From the NCBI GenBank assembly GCA_043228905.1, contig JBHGNT010000004.1, positions 12,090,001 through 12,154,000 of the forward strand: a DNA stretch of 64,000 nucleotides, read 5' to 3'. A model generated the notes under the pieces. The model had not been told where the DNA came from and searched no databases. It worked only from the letters and a program-made list of their open reading frames with translations. Positions 26,208 to 64,000 of the stretch are shown one piece after another. Origin of the DNA: Azolla caroliniana (lineage: Eukaryota > Plantae > Polypodiophyta). The translations under genes and the position numbers were made by a program. Numbering within the stretch: position 1 is the first letter of the stretch; the number at the start of each line of letters is the position of its first letter.

Positions 26208-27205
26208 TGGAAACTGTTAGCGCTCAGGAATACCAATTTGTTTTCTTGGATCTCCAATGCTTAAAAGAGAAATTTGTAGCACTAGAACAAGAAAATCATC
26301 ACTTGTTGGGGGATCTTCAACAAATAGCGTTGGAAAAACAACAACAACATGGGGAGCTGACACTACGTGTACAACAACTCGAAGCGACTATCATATCATT
26401 ACAACAACAAGGATCAAGCACTCAAGGGATTCACAAAGAACCCAAGATTGGTCTTCTTGCAAAATTTGATGGGACCCGATCACAGTTTAGAGGGTTTTTG
26501 AATCAGGTACGTTTAGTGATACAAATGCATCCTTCTCGATATCCCACCGATGCATCACGAGTGGGACTAGTAGGCACTCTCCTTAGTGGCTCAGCGTTAG
26601 CATGGTTTGCTCCATTGTTGGAAAAGGATTCTCCATTATTAAACAGTTTTGAAGAATTTATAAGTGAGTTTAAGGCTTTTTTTGGAGATACTGACAGCAT
26701 AAGGACTGCACTCAACAAAATCCGGCGATTACACCAAGTTGATCGTCCAGCTTCCACATACGCTGCAGATTTCTGCCTACTCGCTGCCGATATCCCTTGG
26801 GATGATCACGCATTGATGGAGCAATTCCGTTATGGCTTACGCAACGATGTCAAGGATTTACTCTTGACCTTCCCCGAAGAGCCAAAGTCATTAACAGAAG
26901 CAATTAGTCGCGCGATGAGATGCGACAACCGCCTCTTCGAACGACGTTCAGAACGACAATTCCAGATCCCGAGAGCAAGATCAGAGCCTACCTATGCCTC
27001 AGTGGTAGTGAAACCTTTTCTGAGGGAGTCATATAATGCGCCTCCAACAAGTACTCCAACTCCGATGGAAATTGACACCACACGTCGTCGTGGACCGCTA
27101 TCGGAAGAAGAAAAGCAACGACGCCAAGCAAACCGACTATGTCTTTATTGCGGTGGACCAGGGCATATCGCGGTAACTGTCCCCATAGGCCAAGAAGGCA
27201 GGTAA
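26208..27205 (+). CDS. Gypsy gag (retrotransposon gag/PEG10-like with CLYCGGPGH knuckle), frameshifted at the end of the first copy
   Basis: Coiled-coil N-terminus, KFDGTRSQFRGF, LLSGSALAWF, QFRYGLRNDVKD, PMEID and CLYCGGPGH. Confidence 0.85.
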
Positions 27206-28078
27206 ACCAAATAGTTGCTAGTTCTGATTGTACTAAACCCGAGTCTATTTAAGTAGGGAAATCTGATAGTCCTAATAGTACTAATAGCCCAAATCTAGCG
27301 CGATGAGATGCGACAACCGCCTCTTCGAACGACGTTCAGAACGACAATTCCAGATCCCGAGGGCAAGATCAGAGCCTACCTATGACTCAGTGGTAGTGAA
27401 ACCTTTTCTGAGGGAGTCATATAATGCGCCTCCAACAAGTACTCCAACTACGATGGAAATTGACACCACACGTCGTCGTGGACCGCTATCGGAAGAAGAA
27501 AAGCAACGACGCCAAGCAAACCGACTATGTCTTTATTGCGGTGGACCAGGGCATATCGCGGTAAACTGTCCCCATAGGCCAAGAAGGCAGGTAAACCAAA
27601 TAGTTGCTAGTTCTGATTGTACTAAACCCGAGTCTATTTAAGTAGGGAAATCTGATAGTCCTAATAGTACTAATAGCCCAAATCTAGCGCGATGAGATGC
27701 GACAACCGCCTCTTCGAACGACGTTCAGAACGACAATTCCAGATCCCGAGGGCAAGATCAGAGCCTACCTATGCCTCAGTGGTAGTGAAACCTTTTCTGA
27801 GGGAGTCATATAATGCGCCTCCAACAAGTACTCCAACTACGATGGAAATTGACACCACACGTCGTCGTGGACCGCTATCGGAAGAAGAAAAGCAACGACG
27901 CCAAGCAAACCGACTATGTCTTTATTGCGGTGGACCAGGGCATATCGCGGTAAACTGTCCCCATAGGCCAAGAAGGCAGGTAAACCAAATAGTTGCTAGT
28001 TCTGATTGTACTAAACCCGAGTCTATTTAAGTAGGGAAATCTGATAGTCCTAATAGTACTAATAGCCCAAATCTAGCG
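26908..28078 (+). repeat. Three tandem copies of a 388-389 bp gag C-terminal segment
   Basis: ATGAGATGCGACAACC at 26915, 27303 and 27692, giving near-identical 112-aa ORFs. Confidence 0.95.
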
Positions 28079-41779: not shown

Positions 41780-41965
41780 GATATGGATTCCGTAGGGAAA
41801 ATTATGGTTTTTGAGTTTTATGGCTTCCGTAGAGAAAATTAGGATTAGGTTATATGAGAGATATGGCTTCCGTAGGGAAAATTCGGGTTTTTGAGTGTTA
41901 TAGCTTCCGTAGGGAAATTAGGGTTTTTGAGTGTTATGGCTTCCGTAGAGAAAATTAGGGTTTTC
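41780..41965. repeat. ~33-bp tandem repeat in the LTR (ttatggcttccgtagggaaaattagggtttttgagtg); also at 55906-55993
   Basis: About 5 copies are visible directly. Confidence 0.8.
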
Positions 41966-44619: not shown

Positions 44620-45282
44620 CAGTCTTTAATCCCGCTCCGAGAGTTGTGCAAAGAAACACTCGAATTCAACAAAAGCATGCATGGCACTTTGCTGGGTCTT
44701 TAATGATGATACCCATTGGTCGAACTCGTATAGTTTGCATTTCTTCTACTCTTTGTATCTATATGCCTCCATGAGATATCCTCCTGCCACCTCGTTTCGC
44801 GTCGGGTTCACCAAAGATGTCGCGAAAATACGACGAGGACATGTGAACTTGAGGCAGTAACCCAGGGCCTCCGACAAGAGGATATTAGATTCGTATGCTA
44901 TATTAAACAATTGATGGAAATAAGAAAGATTGACAAATTTCATTAACAAAGGAAAAGAAAGATTACAATCAATCCCAAGATTGGGATTACAAAAGTTTTA
45001 GCTTATGGAGATTGGTAGAGTAATAGATTAGGAGATTTTGAGATATGGATTCCGTAGGGAAAATTAGGGCTTTTGAGTGTGTGGAAGCGTATGTGCAAAA
45101 GCATAAGAGAGAGAGCGAGAGAGAATAATACACAGAATACAGAGAGTACTCAGGAGAGACAGAGAGAGCAGAACAATAATCTATTACAAAACTTATATCA
45201 ACACTCTGTACATGAAACGTGCTCAACAACACTGTTTATACAAGTCCTGAGAGGACTCACAGAAGTACTGCGTACTTCAATG

Positions 45283-48200
45283 TGTCGGAATTCCGTGCTC
45301 GGCCACAACCGAGGAACAGGATCGATTCACAGAAAACGGGAAATACAACAATACACGAAAAAACAATAGAGAGAAGGGTACACTGGATGTTTTACGTGGA
45401 AAACCCTAAATGGGAAAAACCACGGGAGTGCAAGACTCCAACTATCACTATACGTGGGAATGTACAATGGCGAGCTGCAAGGCGACGACCTTGAGCTCGC
45501 TGTCCTCGCCACAGGCGGCGGTATTACACAGAGGCGTCGACCTCTTCCTTCCTCTTTCGCTCTCACTCTCTCTCGGCTGCTCTCACTTCGCTCCCTCTTA
45601 GTGGAAAACAGAAAATGAGCAACAACAACAACTGTTTGCCCTAAGTCATATTTATACACATATGACTTTCGGGCTATTTACAAATATAGCCTCAAGGGCC
45701 CTTGGCAAACATATTCACAGATATGTCCCCGCATCCGGATCTCTCTCCAGGTACATACGTCATCCGGCTCCGTAACCGGGGTCTTCAGCATCCGGCTCCG
45801 TAACCGGGGTCTTCAGCATCCGGCTCCGTAACCGGGGTCTTCAGCAACCGGCTCCGTAACCGGGTACTCTTCATCCGGCTTCATGCCGGGTACTCTTCAT
45901 CCTACGGTTCCGTAACAGCCTCCGGGCTTGCCGTCATTCATCTCCGGACATCCCATCCGGAGGGACCGAAATCCCAACAAACTCCCCCTTCACTTCGGCA
46001 TGGGATGTCTCTCCAACCCGATCCTCTTCCGGCATGCTTCCAGCTTGTCGGGTGTGAGCACCTTGGTCAGCATATCCGACCCGTTCTCGTCCGTGTGGAT
46101 CTTCGTCAGCACGAACTCCTTGTCTTCTATCCTTTCCCGGATCCAGTGATATCTTCGCTGGATGTGTTTCGTCCGGGAATGGTAGGCCGCGTTCTTCGCA
46201 AGGTGGATGGCACTCTGACTATCGCAGTAGAGTCGGTACTCCTCCTGCCGGATACCGAGCTCTCTAATGAAGTCCTTCATCCATATTATTTCCTTGCCGG
46301 CTTCAACAGCCGCCATGTACTCCGCCTCCGTGGTTGACAACGCAACCGTCTTCTGCAGCCTCGACTGCCATGAAACAGCTCCACCTGCATACGTCATCAC
46401 ATACCCTGATGTGGACCGGCTGGTATCTGCATCAGCCGACATATCCGAATCGGTGAAGCCGTCGAGTTCGGGCTTACCGGAGCCGAATCGGAGGCACACG
46501 TTTGCCGTACCCTTCAGGTATCGGAGTATCCACTTGGCCGCGTTCCAATGCTCTTTGCCGGGATTGCTCATGTATCGGCTCACCACTCCGACTGCATATC
46601 CGATGTCCGGTCTCGTACACACCATGGCGTACATCAAGCTCCCGACGGCTGAGGCATACGGCACTTTCATCATATCCTCCTTTTCAGCCTTTGTCTTGGG
46701 ACTTTGCTTGCTGGTCAGCTTGCAGTTTACCGGGAGGGTCGATCCGACCGGTCTTGCTTCCGACATGTTGAACCGTTGAAGCACCTTTGTCACGTACTTT
46801 TCCTGTGACATCCACAACTGCTTCTTCTTCCGGTCCCGGATGATGTGCATCCCTAATATTTGTCTCGCCGGACCCAGGTCCTTCATTGAGAAGGTTCGGT
46901 GAAGAGCCTTCTTCAGCATCCGTATCTTGACCTGGTCCCGTCCGACGATCAACATGTCGTCCACGTACAGGAGGAGTATTAGAGAGTCTCCTCCTTCGAA
47001 CTTCTTCACAAACACGCAGTGATCAGACTGCGTTTTGTGGTACCCTTCGTCGGTCATGAAGGAGTCGAACTTGCGGTACCATTGCCGGGGAGCCTGCTTC
47101 AGTCCGTAAAGGCTCTTCTTCAACCGGCATACCAGGTGCTCCTTCCCTTTCTTCTCGAATCCTTCCGGTTGCTGCATGTAGATCTCTTCTTCGAGGTCAC
47201 CGTGAAGGAATGCCGTCTTCACGTCCATCTGTTCTACCTCGAGGTCCATGCTTGCCGCTATGCTCAGCACCGTCTGGATGGAGGTCATCTTCACTACCGG
47301 GGCAAATATCTCGTCGAAGTCGACGCCCTTCTTCTGCTGAAACCCCTTCACCACGATCCTGGCTTTGTATCTCGGGGGGTTTTCGGCATCTCCCGGTTTC
47401 AGCTTGAACACCCACTTGTTTCGAAGTGCCCGCTTTCCTTTCGGCAACTCCACAAGTTCATATGTGTGGTTCTCATGCAGGGAATCCATCTCGTCCTGCA
47501 TGGCACTCAACCACCTGCGGCTCTGGGTGTCATGCTTTGCTTCTTCAAAGCTCTCCGGCTCCCCCTCGTCGGTCAGCAGCACGTGCTCAGGTTCCGGAAA
47601 TCTCCGGGGGGCCCTTCTCTCTCTTAGAGGATATCTCCGTTCCGGAGCTTCGGTAACCGGTTCTTCCGATTCTTCTTCATCCGAATCCATTTCGGGATCG
47701 GGGCCGGTTCCGGTATCGTTTTCATCTTCTTCGGCCGGTTCTGTTTCTTCACCGTCTTCGGCCGGATCCTCGAGTGCTAACCGGTCCCTTTCCGGTCGGG
47801 ACTGCTCCTCGTAGAGTTGATACTCACCGGTCGACTTAGAGCTCTTCACCTTCTTCTCCGACTCCCAGTCGGCGAGTGTCTTGTCCTCCATGAAGATGAT
47901 GTCTCGACTCCTGAATATCTTCTTGTCGACCGGGTCCCATACTCGGTAGCCGAACTCGTCATCGCCGTAACCGAGGAATATGCATGGCCGGGTCTTCGGA
48001 TCTAGCTTTCCTCTCCGGTCCTTTGCCACATGCACGTATGCGAGACACCCGAACACCTTCAGATGCCGGTAGGATACTTCCCTACCGGTCCACACTCTCT
48101 GCGGCGTGTCTCCGTCCAACGGTACTGAGGGTGATCTGTTTATCACATATGTCGCCGTCGACATTGCCTCAGCCCAAAATCCCTTGGGTAATTTCGCATG

Positions 48201-50791
48201 CGCCAGCATACTCCGGACCCTCTCCATTATGGTCCGGTTCATCCTCTCGGCCAGCCCGTTCAGTTCCGGCGTCTTCGGCACAGTAAACTCGAGCCGGATT
48301 CCCTTCGAGCGACAGTACTCCGCGAACTGCCCCCGGTATTCTCCTCCGTTATCCGCTCGTATCGCTTTCAGCTTCTTGCCGGATTCTCTTTCCACTCTCG
48401 CGTGGAGTTCTTTGAAGACGGACAATACTTGGTCCTTTGTCTTCATCGGTGCCGTCCACAGTTTTCGGCTATGATCATCGATGAATGTTACGAAGTACTA
48501 AGCTCCGCCATGTGACTTCGTCTCTACCTGACACACGTCAGTGTGCACCAACTCCAATGGTGCGCTACGTCTCGTCGGTGACCTTGAGTGGAAGGAGGTT
48601 CGGTTCTGCTTACCGGCCAGGCAATCGGTGCACTTCTCCAGGTGCACATGCTTCACTGGGATAAGGTTGTCTTCTGCAAGCCTCTTCATCCCCTTCTCAC
48701 TCATGTGGCACAGTCTCTTGTGCCACAGCTCACCGGCAGTGTCGGCTGCCACATTCAGCTCTTCCGGACATAACCGGGCATTCATCAGGTACAGTGTGTT
48801 GACTTTTCGGGCCCGAGCCACCATCAGGCTCCCCTTGCTGAACTTCATTACGCCGTTCCGGATGCTACCTGTGTAGCCTTCATCGTCTAGCCTCCCGGCC
48901 GAAATCAGGTTCAATCGAACCTCCGGAACGTGACGGACATCCTTCAGCAGCATTTTGCATCCGGTCGGGGTTGTCAACCACACGTCTCCGATGCCGGCAA
49001 TCCGGCACGTACCTTCATTTCCCATCCGAACACAGCCATGCTCACCGGCTGTGTAGGATGAGAAGTATCTTCTCTCCGGGGTCAGGAGGAACGATGCTCC
49101 GGAATCGACCACCCAGGTCGTCTCATCGCCGGCAACGTTTAGCTCACCTTCTTCGGTGATGAGCATGATTTCTTCCTCACTTGCCGCGAGTGCCAACGTT
49201 CCTTTCCGGTCCTGCCCTCGCCGATCCGAACCTCTCCGGTCCGAGGCTCCCCGGTATGCACCGTTTCTCTCCGGTGACTTCTTCGAATCGGTGTCGTCGG
49301 CTCCGTTGTCTTTTCGGTAATGCCGACAATTCTTCCGGAAGTGCCCCGGCTTCCCACAGTGGAAGCATGTGGGTCTTCCTCTTGACTGCGACCGGGTCCC
49401 CGACTTCTCCCGTCTTTGCGGACTCCGGTTCCATTGTCTTCCCCGTTCCGATTCGGTAAGCAGCGCCTTCGAGTCGGAGGCCGGTTCTTTATCTCTCCGA
49501 CGCGCTTCTTCGTTCAAAATACTTGTCTTTACCGTTTGTAGGGACAAGTTATCTTCGGTGCAGGAGGTGCTGAGAGTCACCACCAAGTTCTCCCAGCTGT
49601 CCGGCAATGTACACATCAGGATGATGGCTTGCATTGCATCCTCCAACGGGAACTTGATCGCCGCAAGCTGGTTCACGAATCCCATGAACGTGCTTACGTG
49701 TTCCACCATACTCTCGCCGTCCCGGTACTTGAGGTTCACTATCTTCCTCATCAGGGAGGTCCGGTTCAACGCATTCTTCCTCTCGTAGAGGCCCGACAGC
49801 TTCTTCCACATCTCATATGCGTTGGTGTCGTTTGCCACATGTTGTAGGACGCTCACGTCGACGTATTGTCGGATCGTCGCTACGGCTTTCCGGTTCAGGA
49901 GCTTCCACTCCGACTCAAGTACCCCTTTCGGTATTTCCGACCTGTCAATCGGTTCGTACAGGTCCCGAACAATCAGAAGGTCCTCCATCTTGATCTTCCA
50001 GTCGGCGTAGTTCTGCGCATTCAGCACCATCATCCCCGGCTGCCCGCTGCTGCCGCCTTCCATTTTCTGTGTTACCGTCGCTCTGATACCACTTTGTCGG
50101 AATTCCGTGCTCGGCCACAACCGAGGAACAGGATCGATTCACAGAAAACGGGAAATACAACAATACACGAAAAAACAATAGAGAGAAGGGTACACTGGAT
50201 GTTTTACGTGGAAAACCCTAAATGGGAAAAACCACGGGAGTGCAAGACTCCAACTATCACTATACGTGGGAATGTACAATGGCGAGCTGCAAGGCGACGA
50301 CCTTGAGCTCGCTGTCCTCGCCACAGGCGGCGGTATTACACAGAGGCGTCGACCTCTTCCTTCCTCTTTCGCTCTCACTCTCTCTCGGCTGCTCTCACTT
50401 CGCTCCCTCTTAGTGGAAAACAGAAAATGAGCAACAACAACAACTGTTTGCCCTAAGTCATATTTATACACATATGACTTTCGGGCTATTTACAAATATA
50501 GCCTCAAGGGCCCTTGGCAAACATATTCACAGATATGTCCCCGCATCCGGATCTCTCTCCAGGTACATACGTCATCCGGCTCCGTAACCGGGGTCTTCAG
50601 CATCCGGCTCCGTAACCGGGGTCTTCAGCATCCGGCTCCGTAACCGGGGTCTTCAGCAACCGGCTCCGTAACCGGGTACTCTTCATCCGGCTTCATGCCG
50701 GGTACTCTTCATCCTACGGTTCCGTAACAGCCTCCGGGCTTGCCGTCATTCATCTCCGGACATCCCATCCGGAGGGACCGAAATCCCAACA
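45283..50791 (-). mobile_element. Very young full-length Ty1/copia element: LTRs 45283-45979 and 50095-50791 (697 bp), TSD CAATG
   Basis: CAATG at 45278-45282 and 50792-50796. No LTR differences were found by eye, and the ORFs inside the two LTRs translate identically. Confidence 0.96.
45990..50063 (-). pseudogene. Copia gag-pol with a single in-frame TAG (48498-48500) in integrase
   Basis: Near-identical to 18116-22189; SHGGAQYF there is SHGGA*YF here. Confidence 0.93.
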
Positions 50792-51639
50792 CAATGCTCA
50801 CTCGAGCGTCTAGCACTAACTACGAGACTATTAACTCCCTAGTAGTGTAGCTGCTACTAGGCTTCCAGTTATTGATGGATTCAACTAACCGGCTCCCCAG
50901 CTCACTGGCTCTTTTGCTCACCGGGTGCTCACCGTCTCACCGATCCATCTCGCTCACCAACTCAGGCTTATTCAGCCGATCTGGTTCCCGTTGAGCTAGC
51001 CGCTCAACACTCCCCCTCAAGCTCAATTTGAGGTCCGGTCGTAGTGTCAACGTATGTGGCAACCGGTCCTTCTACCTGGCTCCTTCTGGTATCGCACCGC
51101 CTCACTCGCGCTCCTCGTTTGGTCTGGTTCTGTTTGCCAAGACCCCTCTTGTTCTGCGCACCTCGACCTTCTCGGTCGGCTCATCTACTCAACAGGCCCA
51201 ATTCAGCTCCCTCGTTACTGCGACTCCGACACTTGCCGATCCGTCGATTCCTCCGTGATTGCATCGACTTCCGCTGCGTCTGTGTCTGCTTGGCCTTTAG
51301 TTGATCCGGCTCTCCGAATCCAACTCTTGAACCAAATCAGATGTCTCTAATTCGTTCCTGTTCTTGTCCGAATCGGTTGCTCCCGATTCGTCTTCCGGTT
51401 CTAGGCCCTTCACCACATCAAACCATGTCCGAGTCTTGGCCTTCTTCTTCCGGTTGGCTCTGTCCTTCTTGACTCTACCGCCACTATCGCTTGTTCTGAC
51501 TTGTTCTGATGTGTCAACTTCCTTTGTTGACTTAGCTCCTTTCTTCTTCTTGTGTCCCCCTTTGTCGGTTCTTTCCTTACCGGCGCAATCGGAAGTGTCT
51601 TTGCCTTTGCCCGTTCCGGTAGTGTCTGTTCCCATTCTC

Positions 51640-54600
51640 CCCCTCAAGTGTGGCATGTCGAGATGCTGAACACCAAGCATTTCGATGAAGTGTTGCAACT
51701 TGTCCGATCCAAGCAGTTTGGTGAAGATGTCGGCAACCTACCGATCCGTTTGAACATACCGAAGTTCTACTTCACCGTTCAAGCTGCATGTTGCTCATAT
51801 AGTCGCAGTAGATCAGGATCGGGGTCGGTACCTCGATCCGTAGGTCTTGCAGCAGTCGCCGAAGCCAAATGGCTTCACATGTGGCGATGGTAGCGCCCCG
51901 ATACTCAGCCTCAGCGCTCAATAGAGCTACTGTTGGCTGCTTTTTGCTGCTCCATGCAACAACCGCACTGCCTAGGGAAAACATGTAACCGTAAGTTGAT
52001 CGGCGATCTGATGCATCGTCGGCCCAGTCGGCATCCGTGTAACCGACTAGCTCTTCGGTTATACATCGTCAGTATAACAATCCCCATGTACCGCAGTATT
52101 CCGTGCCGCTCATGTACCGCAATATTCGGTGCGCGCACTGAAGATGCTCTACGGTCGGGTTCTGCATGAATTGGCTAATGACACCGACCGGATAGCTGAT
52201 GTCGGGTCGGGTGATGGTCAAATATATAAGGCTTTTGACAATTTTTCGGAACCGTTTCTCATCGCAGGCCAGTCCGGAGTTGCGACAGAGCTTCTGGTTC
52301 CGGTCCAGGGGTGTTGAGACAGGTCGGTATTCTATCATGGTGAACTTTTACAGCATCTTCAACACATAGTGTCTTTGTGAGAGCAATATGCCGTCGGGGG
52401 TTCGGATCACCTCGATCCCAAGGAAATAGTGAAGGTCCCTCAGATCCTTTATCTCAAATGCGTCGGACAACTGGGACTTGATTCGGCCGATTTCATCGAG
52501 TCCGTGTCCGGTGATGACTAGATCATCAACATACAGCAAGATGCAAACCGGACCGTCCGGACCTTACCGGATGAACAACAAAGAGTTGGACTTGGAGGCC
52601 GCAAACCTCATCTTACGCAACCGGTGCGTAATCTTCGCATTCCAAGCTCGAGGTGCTTGCTTCATGCCATAAAGTGACTTCTTCAGCCACCATACCGCCA
52701 ACTTGTTCATCTCCAACTGAAAACCGGGGGGTTAGGTCATGAAGACCTCTTCCTCAAGATCTCCTTGAAGAAATGCATTCTTCACGTCCATCTGGTGAAG
52801 ATGCCACCCCCTTACCGCAGTAACCTCCAGCACCACACGAACTGTCGTCATCTTCGCTACCGGAGCGAAGGTCTCGTCGTAGTCGATTCCGTGGGTCTGC
52901 GCGTATCCCTTCGCCACTAACCGGGTCTTGTACCGGTTAACTAAACCATCGGCATTGTACTTTACTTTGTAAACCCACTTGCATCCAATCAGTTTACAGT
53001 GACCAGGAGGGTCAACCAGGTCCCATGTCTCGTTGGCATCAAGTGCCCGCATCTCTTCTTCCATAGCATCAAGCCAATGTGCGTCCTTTGCCGCTTCTGC
53101 GTAGCTCTCCGGGTCACGCACTTCCGCCACCTTGGTCATGTACGCATAGTGATGCGCCATGTACTCATTGTACCCGTACCGCTTAACAAGTTCCTTCTAG
53201 CAGGTTGACTGACGTAACCCACCGTTACCTGGTTTAAGGCCCTTCTTGGCCGGTTCGGTCTTCAGTGCCGAAGAACCATCATTTTCCTTTCCGGAGTCGG
53301 ATCCGCTCTGATCCAACTCATCATTACCGGTTTCATAATTCGGCCTCTTCTTCTTCCCCTTCTCTTTGCGCGTGAACCGTCTCCTCGGTTTCTTGCGCGG
53401 AGAGAGCACAATAGAGTCTTCACTACTCGCTGATTCCTCTTCTGACTGGTCTCTCGTTCGGGCCCACTCAACCGAAACGATTCCAGATTCTCTTCTTGAG
53501 TCCCGGATTCATCATCTTCTATCTGGACCGGTTCAGGCTCCTCAGTCTCATCCTCCGGTATCGGGTCAGGGTCGGAAGTCGGAGTTGGTAAGGAATACCA
53601 TGATGCCGTTTCATGGAACTTGACATCGCGGCTAACTCGGACCTGCTTTGTCCGGGGGTTATAACACTTATACCCCTTTTCCTCATGTGAGTAGACGACG
53701 AGGATGCACTTCTCCGATTTTGCATCCAGCTTCCTCCGCTTCTCATCTGGCACATGCACATATGCAATGCTACCGAATATTCAAAGGTGTCTCAAATTCG
53801 GCTTGCACCCGAAATACAGCTCATGCGCGAACACCTTGTCACTGATCCGGTTTTGGATGTAGACGGTTGTCCGAGCCACCTCCACCCAGTAGAAATGGGG
53901 CATGCTCTTATCCTCCAGGATCGCCCTTGCCGCGTCGACAAGCGACCGGTTCTTCCTTTCGGCCACACCGTTTTGCTCCGGTGTGTATTTGCAGCTGAAC
54001 TCTCTCCAAACTCCTGTTTGCTGCAGATAACTGTTGAATTGGCCGGAAAAATATTCCTTTCCGCCATCTGACCGCAGGCACTTGATCTTCCTCTCCGATT
54101 CCCGTTCCACCATGCTTTGGAGGTTCTGGAAAAAGTCGAAGACTTCGGTCTTCCGCTCAATGAGGTAGATCCATGTGTGCCGGCTATAGTCGTCGATGAA
54201 GGAGACGAAGTATCGACTCCCGCCAAGACTCACGTTCTATGCCGGTCCCCATACATCTGAATGAATAAGGTCGAGCTTGTTATGGCTACGGTTTCGTTCG
54301 GTGGGGAATGGATGTCGGTGTTGCTTCCCGAGTTGGCAGGCTTCACATATTTGGGCCTTCTGGCCACTAAACCTCGGCAAACCAAAAACAACTTGTTTCG
54401 TTTGCAGGTCTTGAAGCCTCCGGTAATTGACGTGGCCGATTCGCTTGTGCCAAAGATCGATGTCCGATTCAATCTTTTGTCCTTTGGCGAACAAAGCGGT
54501 CTAGATCTGTTTGAATCGGCACGCTTCTTCCAACACTCTCTTTCTCTGTGGCCCTTTTTGCCACAATACTAGCATTCCGTGGCGGATTTGTCATGCCGGC

Positions 54601-55348
54601 CTACGACGCCGCCTTGACTCCCCCTGCTTGTGGAAGTCTCGGAACTGCTGTCAGCGCATTCTCTGTGTCTTCTTTCCTGCTCTTGCCGGCCGCCTCCAGT
54701 GCGTGCCGACCCACCTCGTGCCCCATGCCCACGGGGCCTATTTGTCTCTGTGTACAACATCTGGCTGTCCGATTGAGCGGTCCTGAACCCACTCGCATGG
54801 TTTTCTTCGACCATTAGCATCGATTGCAAATCAAAGAAGGTCGGTGGTTTCTCCCGGGTGCAGATCGTTGTCCGGATTGGCCCGTACCTTTGCGCTAGAC
54901 CATCAAGGCAGATTTGTACCATTTCGTCTTCGTCGACCGTCACGTTGATGGACCTGAGTGTATCGCAAATCTCCTTTATTTTGGTGGTGTAGTCCGTAAC
55001 CGACATATCTCTTTGTCGGATGTTGTTTAGCTCTTGTCGGAGCAGCAACTTACGAGTTGTGGTACTTGCGGCAAAAATCTTACGTAGATTTTCCCCGGCC
55101 TCCTTCGGCGTCTTTGCATCCTTGATGTAGTCGAGCATCTAGTCGTGCACACAAGACGCAAGGCAGTATAATACTCTGCTCACTCCTTCCTCCCATACCG
55201 GGAAGTCCTTGTGTCCAGGCTCTAGTGCTACCTCATTTGTTCCTTCCACAAAACTCCAATACCCATGGCCCAATACGTATTGCATTTTGTATGACCAGGA
55301 CGCGTAGTTGCTCCGGTTGAGCTTCTTTGTAGGAAGTGAACTCGCCAT
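51640..55348 (-). pseudogene. Disrupted copia gag-pol; the protease region appears deleted near 54500-54560
   Basis: Gag 55348-54569, LWHKRIGH...CEACQLGK, rve 54233-53781, RT 53160-52348 and RH 51984-51772. Confidence 0.88.
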
Positions 55349-57032
55349 ACCTCTGTCCCTATTTCTTTTTTCTCTATCTACTGTTCTGTTCTCACAACGT
55401 GTAGGGTTTGTCTTTTGAAAGCAAATGTCGGCTGTAGAGGTCTTCAACCCTCGCGCTCTGATACCATGTGGAAGCGTATGTGCGGAAGCGTAAGAGAACA
55501 GCTTGGCTGCGTAGCAGCAAAGAGAGAGAGAGAGAATAATACACAGAATACAGAGAGTACTCGGGAGAGATAGAGAGAGCAGAACAATAATCTATTACAA
55601 AACTTATATCAACACTCTATGCATGAAACGTGCTCAACAACACTATTTATCAAGTCCTAAGAGGCCTGACAGAAGTACTACCTACTTCAATGCTCACTCG
55701 AGCGTCTCACACTAACTACGAGACTATTAACTCCCTAGTAGTGTAGTTGCTACTAGGCTTTTGGTTACTGATGGATCCAGCTAACCGGCTCCCCAGCTCA
55801 CCGGCTCTTTAGCTCACCGGGTGCTCAATGGCTCACCAATCCGTCTCGATCACCGGCTCATGCTTATTTAGCTGATCCAGCTCCAGTTGCGCTTGCCGCT
55901 CAACCGAGTGTTATGGCTTCCGTAGGAAAAATTCGTGTTTTTGAGTGTTATAGCTTCCGTAGGGAAATTAGGGTTCTTGAGTGTTATGGCTTCTAACACG
56001 TTCACGTTCACAAGTGGAAGGATTGCGCATTCCACTTGTAGAATCTTCTTAAAACGAAGCAAATACACCCTCTCAACAAAAATTGGATGCACTAGTATCA
56101 CATGTTCCTCAACTTGATGAGAATTTGCAAATATAAAAATACATGATAGATCTACGAGTGGAGATCATTAGAAATCATGCAAGTTTAGACATGTTGATAA
56201 GTTAATGTAGGCATAATAAAGTTCAACTATGGCTCAATATGTCACTACTGTGCGACAAGGGAAACACTAACTTAAAGACTTATATTAATTAGGTAAGTTT
56301 TACAAAAATATCAGGTGTACTTGTATCCATACTAATAAAATGAGATATAATTTATACTTTGACCCATACGTGCATGTATGTAATTGTGGAAAATGTGCAC
56401 ATTAGGATAAGTGATTGGAATAACTAACTTATTAAAGTATTCAATACTTGTATTTAAAGTTGATCTAATCTATTCCTCAGTTTGTTCATATGGGATCAAA
56501 CCATATGTTTATAATTGTGGACAATGTAAGGCAGTGAACTTTAGGATAATGTCGTGGAAATAACAAACCTATTAGGCTTTCATATCTGTATTTAAAATTG
56601 ATCTACTCTATTGCTTAGGTGATTCACACAAGATCAAACTCCAAACGATAACGCAACTGGAACCATTATCAACACACTACACAATCTAAGCAGCAATGGA
56701 ATAGAAACATAATAGTTTTAACAATAGAAGACAAAGATCCATAATAACAACATGGACAGTCATGGCAACAATTATAGGGCCATGTTCTGTTAAGGTTAGC
56801 TTGGACCAAAATCAGCCTCAATTTAAACTAGTTCATGTTTCTCCATAAGTTTGGTAGTCAGCTATGCACGCGGTGAAACCAATGTCATAAATCTACTAAT
56901 CAAGTATATAAAAATAAAATTGAAACATATAGAAGATTATAAAGAATAGAATCCACTAGGTAAAACCCAAAATTTGTATTAATAATGTGAAATCTTAACA
57001 AATCGTCAGTGTCATTTTCTTCATAGAGTCTA

Positions 57033-60000
57033 TTACATAGCAATCAATTCATCAACGTCATTTTCTTCATCATCTTGTGTAGAACTGTCTTCGGCTATAC
57101 GTGCATTGGTTTCCCCTGTTAGCCGAGCCAACGAAATATCTTCTATAAGCTCATCATCAAGCTCTATTAGCTCCCCCGGTTCGCCGGCTAACGGAGGAAT
57201 AGGCTCTCGCGAAGCAGGTTGAAACCTTTCTGTATTGGCGAGGTTCTTTGCACTGACCTCCTCATCCTGGTCTGGGCACTCCCACAAAGCCTTAATCCGC
57301 ATATTAATAAATATAACTTGGTCCTCGTCCTTCTCCAATGCAACTGTATTTCTAAAAAGCTTCAATGCACATGCAGACGTAGTTCCTGTGATGTAAGTAA
57401 CAAGAAGATTTAGTTGTCAAACGAAAAAAAAGGGATTGGTTATCTCAAGATCGTTACCCTAGTTCGAGGAATACCTGTGCCAGAAAAGAGATCTAATATC
57501 CAGTCTCCTTCGACAGAAAACATCTCGATCAAGCGCATCATAAGTCGTTGAGGTTTTTGGTATGGGTTGACAAGTCCCCGTTCTGTCGTGGTGACATGTC
57601 GCAATTTCCGTGTCACTGCTGGATATACCAACAGATTTGAACCTCCCACTTCATTAGAATGCTCTTTGATTCTCTATTTCTTAATTTCATCGAAGTAGCC
57701 AACCGTTATGTATTCAATGGCATTAACGAACCGAAAAGTTGGCCCTCTATTTACATTGGTCTTGATCCTATAAAAAATAATACATCGAGTTAAGAATAGA
57801 TTCAACAACCTTAAGAAATGCAATATAGTGAAAGACACCTATAAATAATCCTTACCATGCAAGGTTCTCGATGCCATGGCAACGAGATCTCAAAGCTTGA
57901 GCTACCGAGTAGCCTTGGTCCATACTATGAAAGACAACTATTCGCCACAAGGATGCGGTCGTTAGCTCAGCGAAATCCTTGACCATCTTCTCCAATTGTT
58001 TAAACCTAAACGGTTCATCGTCGTATGATGACCCAGCCATTCGAAATCCGTAAGGAATATCCGAAATCATTAGCGTATATTCCTTCTTTGGCACCTTCTG
58101 GATCAAGTCGATGACATCACTGCAAACCACATTGTAGTAAAGATCTCTCGTAATGTCTTTTTTGTGGCTAAATTTTTTAAAGGAGCCATCTTCCTCCATT
58201 TCGTACGCCTTGACTAAGCGACGATCCTTTTCTTTTCTGGCTCGCTCGAGATGTGCAAGGAAGGATGTAGGGAAATCGTGTATATCCTTAACTTCTCCTT
58301 GTTTCTTGCCTCGACACGGTTTCTAATAGAAGCAATAGGACATCAGGTATTATTATACAAGCTCTACATATGATGAAAGGGTAATGAAAAACCATGAATA
58401 CTAACCCAATCCTTGAATGCAATAAAATACTCTGATAACGCCTTATACGAAGAAGTTAGAGGATAATCCTCGGTCACTTGTTCCCAAGTTATACATCCAA
58501 GTTGTTTCATCATAACTTCTTGGATCTTCATGTACACCTTATGACTGTAAAATTAGAAATCAAGATTAGAACTTTGAATTACACTAGATAGACTACAATT
58601 TCAGTATTTGAAAGACTTACTTATTGAACTCAGTGACCATTTCTTCAAGGCTTAAATCTTTCGCCACAACCCTTGACAAAACCGACACAAGAAGTTGCTC
58701 GTCCTTAATACCTTGCATCGCTCTCCATAGAGACAGCTTCATGTCGTCTGCCGCTTCTTCAATTGTCAAGTCAATTTTCTTGGCGGCTTGTGACTTTAAC
58801 TCTAGTTGAGGGTCAACCCTACATTTCTTTTGTCGTTGACCCTTTACCTCCTTATTCTCCCACATTGAGAAGATTTGATCTTGTAGGTCCCATACTTCTC
58901 CATCTCTAAACGCCAATTGAAACCAAGACTCATACTTTCGAAGACCATCGGACCTAACATTATCATCTACCACAATGCCGACTTCATGCAGACATTGACG
59001 TCAAAAGCCTGGATGTAACTTCACACAAAACTTTTGTTTCACGTCTAAATACTCGTGGTGGAAGAACCGTATACGCTCAATGGACGACATTTTCTGCCTA
59101 TAGTCATTATCATTATTATGGTCCCATGCCAACAGCTTAGCCTCTTCGGTTGTGAGCCCAACATAAATTTTGCACTCGGCATACTTGAAGAAGAAAGTTG
59201 TTGGATGTTCTCTCACAAGTTGCTGACGTGCCTCTGCTGAATGCGATCCACCAATGACAAAATAATTATATTGATCATGCTTTCTAATATCAAAATCTTC
59301 AATGGTTTCACATTCTTCAAGATCTACCATAACAATAAAAGGCACCACAATGGCATGAGGATTAATTTTCATTTTTTTCTTGAGATTTTGAACATGCATG
59401 CAGTGTGGCTCTCTAATCTCAAGTGGTCGTCGACCTGTTTTTTCATCAATAAGGGGCCGATGGATGTGTGTTATAGGCAAATTAAACACTTTCCCTTTCC
59501 TGACCAGTTTCCGTTGCATTAACTCTCTCCTTATCTTATTCTGCTCGGATGACAAAACACCCGAGGCCAGCTTAGCTCCTGGCGTCCCCTTATTATCCTC
59601 CTCTTCGTTTTCACTTGTTGAATCCGTATCCGACATTTTGGTTGTCTTCTTCTTTGGTGGTCTTGACTGGACTTTGGATACCCTTTTTGTGGCCTTCAAT
59701 GGGGAGGGCACTTCATCTCTTAGAGTTACATGGCCTTGTATATAAGGCCTCAAGGTAACAATAAGGTTTTGTGAGCTTTCAAGATCTTTTTTGAACACTT
59801 CTGGCCCACAAGATTCCTTTACTAAAAGGTCTTCTGAAAGGAACACTTTATGTACCCCCTTGGAGCACTCTATCATTACCAGTATGTTGGCCGAATCTGC
59901 ATCTTCGTAGTCAAATCGTAGAATACGGCCATACATAAATGGGGTTTCCTTTCCAAGCTGCCCCTCCCCCTACTTCTTTGCTGTATACAATACGACTTTT

Positions 60001-61323
60001 TTCTTTGAGTCGACATATTGCATACACCATTCCTTGTCTGTTAGATCTCGGTCAGGAAGATCTTCACCTCCAGTAGCGGCGACAAGTTTCTTTTGGCTAA
60101 CATCACTATGTGGCTGAGATTTTGTCTCTTCGTTAAAGAGAAGCTTTTTCCCTCTCTTCATGGTCTCAGGAGCTACCTTGGTCTGGGCTTCGATTGGAGA
60201 ACCTTGTATGCGAAGCTTTATTTTCTTCACGGGTCGGTCCGACAGGTTCTCAAACGACCTATTTAAGAAAGTATATGCAAAAACATAAGTTAGGTGGTCA
60301 CGTAGATTAAGGTTGTATATTAACATGAAGAACAGTTCTCACTAGCAGTCCTATATTCAAAAATCTATTATAGGCAGGGCTATTCAACCTAGAAAATATA
60401 TATCGTAATAAGTAAACAGGGTTATATATTCTTTTAAATAGTAGGTATGACTTATATAGATTCCAAACCTATATTGAGGAGAATTTGCTATCGTAAAGGC
60501 AATTTGTGGATCATTTTCTACTATTTTAAGCTAAAGTAGGTCATAAAACCCCTATAATTAGAACATGTTTTTTTTTAAAAGTAAGGAAAGTCAACATAAA
60601 AAAGATTGATTTTGCCAGACAATTTGATATCTTTTCCACACCATAATTATTTGTTACCCCAAAAACACAATTTTTCTCTCTCAGAGCCTTCTTTTATACA
60701 GGAACTCGATACGGCGTATCGAGTTCCCATTTAAAGTTTAGGATTTAAACAAGAACTCGATACGCCGTATAGAGTTCCTCTGCTTTCTTTGCTTTTTAAA
60801 CAGGAACTCGATACGGCGTATCGAGTTCCTGTTTAAAACCTAAACTTTAAACACGAGAACTCGATACGGCGTATCGAGTTCCTGTTTAAAGTTTAGGTTT
60901 TAAACACGAACTCGATACGGCGTATCGAGTTCCTGTTTAAAAAGCAAAGAAAGCAGAGGAACTCGATACGCCGTATCGAGTTCCCATTTAAAGTTTGAAA
61001 TTTAAACACGAACTCGATACGGCGTATCGAGTTCCTGTTTAATGTTTAGGTTTTAAACAGGAACTCGATACGCCGTATCGAGTTCCTATTTAAAGTGTAT
61101 GTTTTAAACAGGAACTCGATACGCCGTATCGAGTTCCCGTTTAAAAAGCAAAAACAAATTATGAACTCGATACGCCGTATCGAGTTCATGTATAAAGTTT
61201 GTATTGTATACATGAACTCGATACGGCGTATCGAGTTCTAGAGCGACGAAACATATTTACAAAAATGTCCACAGTGTCAGAGGCCTACCTGGAGTTCTTG
61301 CGCTCGATTCTCTTTGAAGACAT
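57033..61323 (-). pseudogene. Six-exon gene: ParB/Srx-like domain plus beta-class N6-adenine/N4-cytosine DNA methyltransferase (~974 codons; nonsense codons at 59970-72, 59001-03 and 57674-76). Exons: 61323-61289, 60258-58621, 58544-58406, 58322-57856, 57767-57475, 57385-57033
   Basis: All five introns are GT-AG and keep the frame (total 2925 nt). Motif IV-like ISDIPYG (58061-58050) precedes W|IKTN, NPYQKPQRLMMRLIEMFSVEGDWILDLFSGTG|TTSACALKLFRNTVALEKD, the typical N6_N4_Mtase order. ParB-like YFVIGGSHSAEA...YVGLTTEEAKLLAWDHN. Confidence 0.85.
60702..61238. repeat. Array of 11 palindromes GAACTCGATACG(G/C)CGTATCGAGTTC, 51-bp period, in intron 1 of the methyltransferase gene
   Basis: Starts at 60702, 60753, 60804, 60857, 60908, 60959, 61010, 61061, 61112, 61163 and 61214. 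One copy has a single mismatch. Confidence 0.97.
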
Positions 61324-61466
61324 GGTTGATCGTGTGGAAGTGGAGGCGGAGATCGCGCTTTGGTGCTTTGTGCTCTGTGTGCTTTGTGTGCTTTTTGTGC
61401 TCTCTACGTTCTGTGTGCTCTGTACGCTCTGTACGCTCTAGTGAGTGAAATATGAAGAGGTCTTCC

Positions 61467-61474
61467 TATTTATA
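61467..61474 (-). promoter_or_regulatory. TATA box (TATAAATA) of the methyltransferase gene
   Basis: Reverse complement ccctataaataggaag lies ~145 bp upstream of the ATG at 61323 (context caaccATG). Confidence 0.6.
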
Positions 61475-62138
61475 GGGATTGACCACATTGGTTAAAGTAA
61501 CCATAGTCACCTTAACCAAGGTTGGTAACTTTGAGGATAGTTAGTTGGTAACCATAGTCACATTAACTAGAGTAACTTATGATTGCATTAATGATTACAA
61601 AGTCAAACTAACATATTGATCAATCTTTTATAGTCATAACAACCTGCAATGACTTCAAAGGTTATGAAGGAGACAATGATAGAGGTTCATGAATGTACCA
61701 ATGATTGATTACTAAAAGCAACAATTTTTATGACTCTCAAATGCTATGTATTAAAGATGTTGGCATGAATTAACCAATGATTGATAAGTCTAATATTTAA
61801 AATGGTGAGCATTAAAGAACCAATGAGTGAGACGTTCTATATCAAAATGGGTGCCATTAATTAGCCAATGATTTTAACATTAATCCAACATATTCATGGC
61901 TTGTTAATGATTAGTTTTATATTTTACTTGATTTAACTTCATATAGATCTAGTTTATATAATAATTGATATTTTAAGTACAATTACTTTATTAAAAATAA
62001 TTTTTTGATGTATTGTATTAATAGAATATTACATAATATAGACATTCTATTGATTTGGCTTTTGTTTAGAGAGGAGCTTATTAGTTTTTTCCTTACCCTA
62101 AGCACATAACTTAGAGAGCCCTATCTAGACCTTAAGCC

Positions 62139-64000
62139 ATGAGTGAAGATTCACCGTTCTCGATTGAAGAATATTGTTTGTCATCAGACCCATCGTTTTC
62201 TACTGAAGAGTATTGTTTGTCAACAGAGTCACCATATTCGATTGAAGAATATTGTTTGTCGACCGACTCACCATATTCTATCGAAGAATATTGTCTGAGC
62301 TCATCTACAGGGAACGTAAATAATGACACATGTGAAGAGTTCTCTATTGAAGAATAAAATATTAATAAAGATACCGAGAATGAAGGTAGTGCCCAGGAAA
62401 CATTGAATAACATTGGCGATGGTCACAACAGAGAATTAGACTGTAACAAGGTTACACCAACCTCTATGCAGGAAGAGAAATCTGGGAGCCCTATGCATAT
62501 TAGAAGAATCCCACAAAGAATTCGTCTGGCTAGATTTAGCTTGGTGACATCAGATAAACAGATTGGATTTGATGTCAAAAAAATATGGTGTGCCTGTGGT
62601 TGTATGTCTATGATTGGAAAATCAAAGTTGCGAGAATTAAGGCGATACTATTTTTCGATGACCGGTGATGAGCAAGACACTTACCTCGGGTCACATATGC
62701 AACTAGTATCTGACAAATGTACGGGGATCAAAGTATCATTCGAGTATTATATCTTCCATGCGCAACAGATATGTAGAGTTGCATTCAAAATTGCGTTATG
62801 TGTTAGTAACATGCGGCTACATAGAGTACAACAACGTCTACTTAGAGGGGATCAGATGCTCAATTGTAAAGAGGTTCCAAGTATGAAAGGTGCAATTGGA
62901 AGACATGCTATTGGCTGGATGAAAACTTACTTTCAGTTAAATTGTGAAGTAATGCCCACTACAGGTAGGATGCATCTTTCTGATAATTATACACATCGGG
63001 AAGTTTATGATGTCTATCGATCTGATATGTTGGGCTCACGTAATAAGTCTATCACCTATAGCCAATTCACAAGATTATGGAGAGCTCGGTTTTCAAATGT
63101 TATTATTCCTCGTAAAGTACGTATGGGGTATTGCTCCATTTGTGCAAATCTTAAAAGTTTGGCTAAAGGTGCAAAGACATCAATGGAAAAGGATACGAGT
63201 AAGAAGTTACTACAAGAGCATCGTGAGGCACAATCCTTAGAACGAAGGAAGGCGATGCATCATAGAGAGAAGTGTTTGAAGAGGCCCGAACAATACATGT
63301 GCTTAATGATAGATGGCATGGACCAGAAGAAGACATGCTTGCCGCATATGCGGAGGCTCCCCAAAGATGTCAATGATGAGTGCCTCGTTCAAATGCACTT
63401 GGTGGGATGCTTGTCTTATAATAGGTCCGTTCGACCTCACGTCTTCATTACTTACCCCAATGTTCACAATGACCCTAACCTAACAGTTACAGTGATTCAC
63501 CGAGTTTTGATGTCTTGGGGCCAACCTTTCCCCCCTGTTCTATACATTCAATTGGACAATACTGCTAGAGAGAACAAAAATTCAACTGTATTTGGCTATC
63601 TAAGTATGTTGGTCAACCTAGAATTGTTTAGGAAAGTGAAAGTCAATTTCCTTTTGGTTGGCCACACACATGACCATATAGATCAGATGTTTAGCACATT
63701 CTCCAGACAGTTGTCTCGGCATGATGCTTTCACTTTACCTAAACTATTTGATGTCATTTGTGATGCTTATACACCACACCCAAAAGTGTTACACTTGAAG
63801 GAGGTATATGACTTTAAGAGATATATATTAGATGGGGGTGGTGGGAATGTTAAAGTGCTTGCTCAGTTAACAATCACATTTTTATGATAAAGAAAAATGG
63901 AATAAGTGGTTCTACACTTTTGTATGCTAAACAATATTCATCTTCTACAACATGGGAACCTGAAGGTGGTTGCCAGTTATTACTTTGTATGCCGAGTACA
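62139..64000 (+). pseudogene. Putative transposase (DUF7869/Sola-like RNase H-fold with a Cys-rich N-terminal part); nonsense codon at 62355-57, frameshift near 63870, runs off the window
   Basis: ORFs 62139-62357 and 62403-63887 are in frame. Motifs CACGC, CRVAF, CEVMP, FTRLW..F..VIIP..GYCSIC, LMIDGMDQ, LYIQLDNTARENKN and FLLVGHTHDHIDQMF. Confidence 0.7.
62148..62300 (+). repeat. Four 42-bp-class coding repeats (SP(F/Y)SIEEYCLS-like)
   Basis: Visible in the ORF 62139-62357 translation. Confidence 0.85.

Follow-up and report, generated by a model that had tools for sequence, protein, structure and literature searches.

The window analysed here is a 64,000-nucleotide stretch of the Azolla caroliniana genome (assembly GCA_043228905.1, contig JBHGNT010000004.1, positions 12,090,001 to 12,154,000), filled up to position ~55,900 with plant repeat DNA that includes nested long terminal repeat (LTR) elements. 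A shift in composition from 55995 marks the start of a decayed copy of a many-copy plant cut-and-paste DNA transposon, which begins with a terminal inverted repeat (TIR, AACAC…) on the side of a minus-strand methyltransferase gene and whose other end lies beyond the end of the window. The element carries this gene, predicted to encode a ParB-like region fused to an amino-methyltransferase, head-to-head with a transposase gene, and an array of palindromes in the first intron of the former (Table 1). This layout agrees with the initial annotation of the window, which had described two divergent genes sharing an intergenic region of ~800 bp, a spliced six-exon product of 974 aa and an 11-copy palindrome array in intron 1: the intergenic region measures 815 bp, and the six exons amount to exactly 974 codons plus a stop, with all five introns bounded by GT..AG and with three premature stops to be added to that description. 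In our judgment it is almost certain that this is a real transposon family, in which the ParB-methyltransferase cargo is conserved and the sites of the array are phased. Comparisons within the family draw on related loci, designated by L-numbers, which are the best 80 of at least 122 metagenome-contig stretches encoding a relative (56–90% identity); because they apparently derive from one assembly series, they are treated as diverse subfamilies and not as independent host lineages.

Table 1. Features of the transposon copy in the window (positions as numbered in the window).
Feature	Position	Strand	Basis
TIR, methyltransferase-side end, 5'-AACAC..., ~26–36 bp	55995..56030	+	same terminus at 33 ends
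Exon 6: end of S-adenosylmethionine (SAM)-binding motif I (FSGTG/TT spans intron 5) and acidic tail	57385-57033	-	sequence
Exon 5: amino-methyltransferase YQKP and DLFSG; stop at codon 791	57767-57475	-	Pfam N6_N4_Mtase, E 4.7e-8
Exon 4: catalytic motif IV variant DIPY (~58050-58061)	58322-57856	-	invariant in 22 non-redundant open models
Exon 3: linker	58544-58406	-	junctions colinear with Ceratopteris homologue P0005
Exon 2: variable N-terminus, predicted ParB/sulfiredoxin fold, predicted ParB-type helical DNA-binding domain; stops at codons 108 and 431	60258-58621	-	model of L017
Predicted ParB-type helical DNA-binding domain in exon 2	~58621-59093	-	model of intact relative L017
Predicted ParB/sulfiredoxin-fold domain in exon 2, GGSH motif	~59100-59516	-	model of intact relative L017
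Array of 11 palindromes GAACTCGATACG-S-CGTATCGAGTTY, 51-bp period, intron 1	60702..61238		sequence
Exon 1: 35 nt, short basic peptide	61323-61289	-	similar micro-exon in 8 loci
Shared intergenic region, 815 bp	61324..62138		sequence; same layout in 9 loci read
DUF7869 (Sola-like) DDD transposase, 5' two-thirds, cut by window end	62139..64000	+	Pfam, fold model

The match of exon 5 to Pfam N6_N4_Mtase (PF01555) lies above the Pfam cutoff. Motifs of the spliced gene fall at codons 348 (GGSH), 692 (DIPY), 829 (YQKP) and 854 (FSGTG), with catalytic motif IV ahead of SAM-binding motif I, as in beta-class enzymes. A profile search of the PDB with the Ginkgo homologue placed it closest to the N6-methyladenine (6mA) enzymes M.RsrI, M.MboIIA and CcrM (E 2–5e-6), with N4-methylcytosine (4mC) enzymes at E 0.35–0.9. 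The sequence therefore supports a predicted beta-class amino-methyltransferase of bacterial type. Exons 2–6 are present in 37 of the 80 loci, 34 of them with GT..AG at introns 2–5 under automatic placement (the exceptions are L029, L037 and L062), and 30 of the 37 gene models are free of stops and share intron positions. Removal of near-duplicates left 22 models and 231 pairs, most of them saturated at synonymous sites; in the unsaturated pairs, the median ratio of nonsynonymous to synonymous divergence (dN/dS) was 0.027 for the ParB-like part (7 pairs), 0.044 for the helical part (6 pairs) and 0.050 for the methyltransferase part (10 pairs). DIPYG, YQKP and DLFSGTG are invariant in these 22 models. 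The ParB-like, helical and methyltransferase parts are all under purifying selection. A search for short stand-alone relatives of the methyltransferase yielded one fragment.

The start of intron 1 holds a further short element. An exact 11-mer, CTGTACGGACA, lies 14–22 nt past the exon-1 donor in seven loci, with eight matches in all (L014:3730, L017:3604, L022:3659, L030:4034, L035:6137, L037:6666, L041:3551 and L011:791) and none on the opposite strand; a variant occurs at ~61274 on the minus strand of the window. This 11-mer could be a second binding element or a splicing element.

The plus-strand frame matches Pfam DUF7869 (E 1.6e-50), a family without a match by name in open-licence literature, and contains the motifs IDGMDQ, QLDNTARENKN and GHTHDHIDQ that the initial annotation had singled out. 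The predicted catalytic Asp codons lie at 63312, 63555 and 63681; across 69 transposase sequences two of these Asp residues are invariant and the third is at least 90% conserved. Compared with intact relatives of 917–929 aa, the window protein is 67–84% identical over their first 573–585 residues, and it is interrupted by a stop at 62355-62357 and a frameshift near 63872-63881. In searches with a structural model of the transposase (predicted local distance difference test, pLDDT, 83.3), Foldseek gave Mos1 as a weak top match (E 1.7e-3), with none reaching 1e-3, and VIA aligned the model to integrases, Mos1 and Metnase with Z 8.2–8.9 and a root-mean-square deviation (rmsd) of 2.6–3.5 over 129–162 residues. 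A PDB profile search with the sequence returned nothing meaningful. The model supports a DDE/D-class transposase with the RNase H-like fold on which the initial annotation had made its proposal depend, a fold that marks the class and not the superfamily.

The N-terminus of the transposase contains acidic repeats of 39 bp (13 aa; S/P-F/Y-S-I-E-E-Y) at 62147-62297, with similar runs in relatives. In the intact transposase of L017 (L017:387-2846, minus strand), the model includes a confident beta-rich C-terminal domain (residues ~655–770) whose Atlas matches are restricted to unnamed eukaryotic or animal clusters. The 815-bp region between the two genes is likely to function as a bidirectional promoter. 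Near-palindromes of the form TAAC(C/T)AT(A/G)GTT are repeated in this shared region (61497-61567 in the window), as well as in the intergenic regions of L017, L022, L035, L037 and L041.

The TIR at 55995 interrupts a 37-bp repeat that is found uninterrupted, and without AACAC, at 41856-41943 of the window. The AACAC… terminus is common to 33 ends in the related loci, with flanks that are all different, and both ends of the element are present and inverted relative to each other in L017, L042 and L071, bearing out the identification as a DNA transposon; whole elements range from ~7.6 kb (L042) to 8.6 kb (L017). With three stops in the methyltransferase gene and a stop plus a frameshift in the transposase, the window copy is dead. 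The element is likely of the Sola type, a name that we base in part on transposase motifs which we take to be those of Sola. The termini provide the second basis, since AACAC…GTGTT resembles the AACCG…CGGTT ends of Ectocarpus Sola1-1_Ec32 as given in passages of PMC12477816. Sola DNA transposons are described as generating a 4-bp target-site duplication (cited passage of PMC10741241). Over the 33 ends, flank symmetry peaks at 4 bp (0.016), followed by 6 bp (0.007), a ranking without a significance test; L042 and L071, the contigs with both ends and flanks, display no matching target duplication and are possibly collapsed assemblies. The paralogous flank reads on as CGTAG and not as AA, which speaks against an AA|TT target that is not duplicated. 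A small hairpin (56011-56038) lies just inside the methyltransferase-side TIR, and the transposase-side end of relatives lacks it.

Alignment of three DNA runs to positions 55400-64000 yielded 14,794, 10,803 and 14,285 contig records, where contig depth does not equal copy number. The records extend over all 30 bins and are mostly 90–99% alike; many diverged copies exist, although these records give no copy count. One RNA run contained seven short partial pieces of the element, which count neither way on expression. The two genes and the array travel together in other copies, in line with the original proposal. Fourteen loci extend 2 kb or more upstream of exon 2, and 12 of these carry the transposase in head-to-head orientation; in L071 it is present across an internal deletion, and none was seen in L065, whose flank measures 2.1 kb. 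Transposase pieces also occur in L013, L019 and L067, which are shorter, and the transposase matches downstream in L033 and L050 apparently belong to neighbouring elements. Distances computed for the transposase and for the ParB-like region are correlated over 11 elements, two near-duplicates being left out (Mantel r 0.78, p 1e-4), and both trees recover a group composed of the window copy, L022, L017, L032 and L042. The methyltransferase gene and the transposase co-diverge.

The ParB-like region has named homologues in the ferns Ceratopteris (57% identity) and Adiantum as well as in Ginkgo, Riccia and Chara, and 9 of the 30 homologues scanned contain PF01555 in the same protein. In Riccia, R1sor_010795 (DUF7869) and R1sor_010796 (ParB-like plus N6_N4) bear consecutive tags on the same chromosome-length contig; no other named transposase and cargo tags are adjacent among the tags listed. 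Pattern scans of prokaryote and viral contigs, which are sensitive to close relatives only, found no relative. More distant ParB-like homologues (P0157, P0161, P0132, P0140) come from the lancelet Branchiostoma, the acorn worm Saccoglossus and the sea anemone Exaiptasia.

Each palindrome of the array in the window is 25 bp long, and the palindromes are spaced by 51 bp, with one interval of 53 bp. In 300 dinucleotide shuffles of intron 1, the mean number of palindromes was 0.003 and the maximum 1, against the 11 observed. Across subfamilies a core, CGATRC-N3-GYATCG, is kept, and flanks and spacers vary. Allowing at most one mismatch, this core has 190 matches in the 51 kb of intron-1 region and 12 in 277 kb elsewhere, 10 of the 12 sitting in one contig with a second element. 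Where the intron is fully covered, palindrome number ranges from 1 (L042, L043) to 15 (L022, L035). Spacings cluster at 31–33, 40–43, 50–53, 63 and 72–73 bp, with a best period of ~10.3 bp that persists when each distinct spacing is counted once (R 0.47, p 4e-4, n = 31 values). The putative recognition-helix segment of the ParB-like protein is nearly invariant, as is the core site; this invariance and the phasing are expected if the cognate protein binds the array. In principle, the array could instead be bound by the transposase or by a host factor.

The ParB relationship was found by fold search alone, since neither Pfam nor PDB profile searches detected ParB by sequence. The AlphaFold model of the exon-2 region of the open copy L017 (pLDDT 86.6) matched M. 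xanthus ParB and Noc in Foldseek (E 2e-5, alignments of ~290 columns) and PadC in VIA (Z 9.3, rmsd 3.1, 99 residues); for residues 155–324 the best VIA rows were the DNA-binding domains of KorB, ParB and SopB, at low Z of 4.0–5.3 (KorB 5.3). The model thus supports a ParB N-terminal fold in the exon-2 region, and together with the Pfam match of exon 5 it sustains the predicted ParB-like plus amino-methyltransferase fusion. ParB binds cytidine triphosphate (CTP) through an arginine patch, GERRxRA (cited passage of PMC7333895). Where this patch is expected, taking the equivalence from the fold match, the family has a conserved GGxH(S/T)xxA motif, with His in 90 displayed rows and Arg in one, and mostly Ser or Thr in the next column. 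Because GERRxRA is replaced by GGxH(S/T), the idea that the protein spreads as a CTP clamp, a property that the initial annotation cites for ParB, is weakened: classical CTP-clamp sliding is probably not used, and the protein is therefore best called ParB-like in fold and not classed as a CTP clamp.

Taking these observations together, we somewhat favour the reading that the ParB-like/methyltransferase protein binds its own intron-1 array and methylates adenine on its own element in the service of the promoter. Dimers of the protein would bind each palindrome, aligned on one face of the helix, and the tethered methyltransferase would write 6mA in the vicinity of the array and of the shared promoter. 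Such local 6mA might keep a small control region usable despite silencing of transposons by 5-methylcytosine (5mC) at CG and CHG sites of the genome, and intact copies could act in trans on dead ones such as the window copy. More tentatively, and with the odds rather against it in this full form, the family may represent an ancient streptophyte transposon lineage, still selected in ferns, in which a ParB-derived reader on helically phased operators deposits 6mA (or 4mC) at the control region and so licenses it against host 5mC.

Several observations weigh against binding and adenine methylation of this kind. Motif IV is DIPY and not the canonical (D/N/S)PP(Y/F); distant homologues have DPPY (P0134, P0159, P0164), DFPY (Chara) or DAPY (Adiantum). 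The PDB match of the Ginkgo homologue spans only the SAM-binding half, and the beta-class domain has changed repeatedly between 6mA and 4mC (cited passage of PMC8885841). L042 and L043 look intact yet hold a single palindrome, and L077 has none matching the core. Common descent accounts for part of the Mantel correlation, and the ParB tree has little support at its deeper nodes. The 5mC footprint adds to these points. Outside the array, the observed/expected CG ratio is 0.3–0.8, compared with 0.8–1.0 in neighbouring LTR elements. The window copy differs from the family majority at ~10–15 of 1,641 exon-2 positions, five of the 15 differences being found only among the matches listed; C>T/G>A substitutions affect 8 of 193 CG/CHG sites and 3 of 513 CHH sites, a ~7-fold enrichment (p 0.002; p 0.019 on a smaller row set). 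Given this excess at CG/CHG, where Ceratopteris repeats carry methylation (cited passage of PMC9477723), the body of the window copy was probably 5mC-methylated. The depletion and the mutation spectrum, which are indirect indicators, give no sign of element-wide protection resembling that by VANC, and they do not support the initial annotation's idea of a protective mark in an element-wide form.

A different use of the same protein would be autoregulation or timing: bound to the array, it would methylate the promoter or the ends so as to damp or time transposase output, with no part in counter-silencing. Dam exerts methylation control of this timing type on IS10 and IS50. The array lies just downstream of the gene's own exon 1, adjoining the shared promoter, and the element body is unprotected from CG/CHG loss, both as expected for such a switch; the strong constraint and the long joint inheritance are compatible with both roles, and we regard the switch as a rather unlikely but serious alternative. 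Less probable still is that the enzyme's mark is 4mC, placed on the CG of the TCGA/CCG core, where it would stand directly in the way of host 5mC. Every palindrome offers four CGs, no CG transition is seen among the 88 such cytosines of the 11 palindromes in the window, and eukaryotic 4mC enzymes of the PF01555 family exist (passages of bioRxiv 10.1101/2021.02.12.428880 and PMC8885841). However, motif IV begins with Asp, as opposed to the Ser of N4CMT and MpDN4MT1, the PDB neighbours are 6mA enzymes, and the difference between 0 of 88 and 4 of 104 is not significant in this low-power test (p 0.13), which speaks neither for nor against a protection confined to the array.

It is improbable that the methyltransferase domain is inactive or secondary and that the protein serves as a DNA-binding scaffold, bridging copies or assisting assembly of the transposition complex. 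The non-canonical DIPY and the replaced ParB arginine patch would suit such a scaffold, and inactive transposon-borne methyltransferase domains are described in DIRS1 (cited passage of PMC4738411), but neither the catalytic Asp and Tyr nor the SAM-binding FSGTG varies, and dN/dS is ~0.05. A single-copy host gene lying beside a transposase by chance, a reading with no observation in its favour, is refuted for practical purposes by the contig records over 30 bins (14,794 in one run), by TIRs shared among 33 different flanks and by the many diverged subfamilies.

The family is a new land-plant member of a recently described algal design. Passages of PMC12477816 describe Sola1-1_Ec32 of Ectocarpus, a brown alga, as encoding on the opposite strand a 1104-aa protein with ParB-like and N4C/N6A methyltransferase parts, propose that proteins of this type bind their own transposon and modify it, and cite green- and red-algal cases (green: Iyer et al., 2011). 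Both are DDE elements, Sola-type in Ectocarpus and likely so here, with an opposite-strand ParB-like plus methyltransferase gene and the same proposed self-marking role, the likeness to the Ectocarpus protein being one of description. Sola1-1_Ec32 is 21.5 kb long with a 282-bp TIR and two intact copies, whereas the Azolla family is ~7.6–8.6 kb long with a TIR of 26–36 bp, belongs to land plants and comprises many open subfamilies; the passages on Sola1-1_Ec32 do not mention a palindrome array. In the red alga Bostrychia, Plavaka (EnSpm) PAG2/PAG3 likewise combine a transposon-encoded ParB-like protein with adjacent tandem inverted-repeat arrays, a proposal that it binds and modifies its own element, and a PF01555 methylase on the same element (passages of bioRxiv 10.1101/2025.02.11.637652); they differ in transposase superfamily, in fusion of ParB to a 2-oxoglutarate (2OG)-oxygenase and in a separate methylase fused to SET. 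Because the Ectocarpus and Bostrychia descriptions precede ours, this is not a new kind of system, and the novelty claimed in the initial annotation is reduced accordingly, both the layout and the self-marking idea being in print for algae. We found no land-plant description in open-licence literature text, and Repbase and Table S6 of the Bostrychia study may already list plant members.

Phage fusions of ParB_N with N6_N4_Mtase have the same domain order and are the nearest named Atlas clusters, at 0.86–0.87 (below 0.9, and thus only a lead); phage ParB-terminase loci appear in a passage of PMC4738411, and the Azolla gene is spliced, unlike the phage fusions, which are nonetheless a plausible ultimate source. 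VANC of the Arabidopsis VANDAL transposons is likewise encoded by a transposon and targets tandem repeats in non-coding stretches of that same element (PMC5735166). Under VANC, 5mC is lost across the whole element and the targets vary from family to family, in contrast to the predicted writer, the family-wide core site and the lack of visible element-wide protection here. MpDN4MT1 of Marchantia (bioRxiv 10.1101/2021.02.12.428880) and the bdelloid N4CMT (PMC8885841) are, like the predicted Azolla enzyme, prokaryote-derived beta-class amino-methyltransferases in eukaryotes. As presented in the cited passages, both are genes of the host, contain an SPPY motif and write 4mC, with no mention of ParB or of a role as transposon cargo.

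Transposon-borne ParB-methyltransferases have so far been proposed from single algal families, with no biochemical test cited in the passages concerned. The present family offers many open natural versions, a candidate site (CGATRC-N3-GYATCG) and a spacing rule, so that a model fern allows a direct test of the self-marking idea. If the idea is true, both the enzyme behind DNA amino-methylation in a land plant and the target of that mark would be identified, together with a counter-silencing route other than that of VANC. Land plants would then possess a defined, transposon-encoded and site-targeted amino-methyl mark and, with it, a ready-made programmable writer.

Two further repeat features lie in the part of the window preceding the element. 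One LTR retrotransposon (45283-50791) is nested inside another (45060-55905), and the inner one appears to be very recent because its 697-bp LTRs are 100% identical. Positions 26910-28078 consist of three tandem 389-bp copies that are 99% identical.

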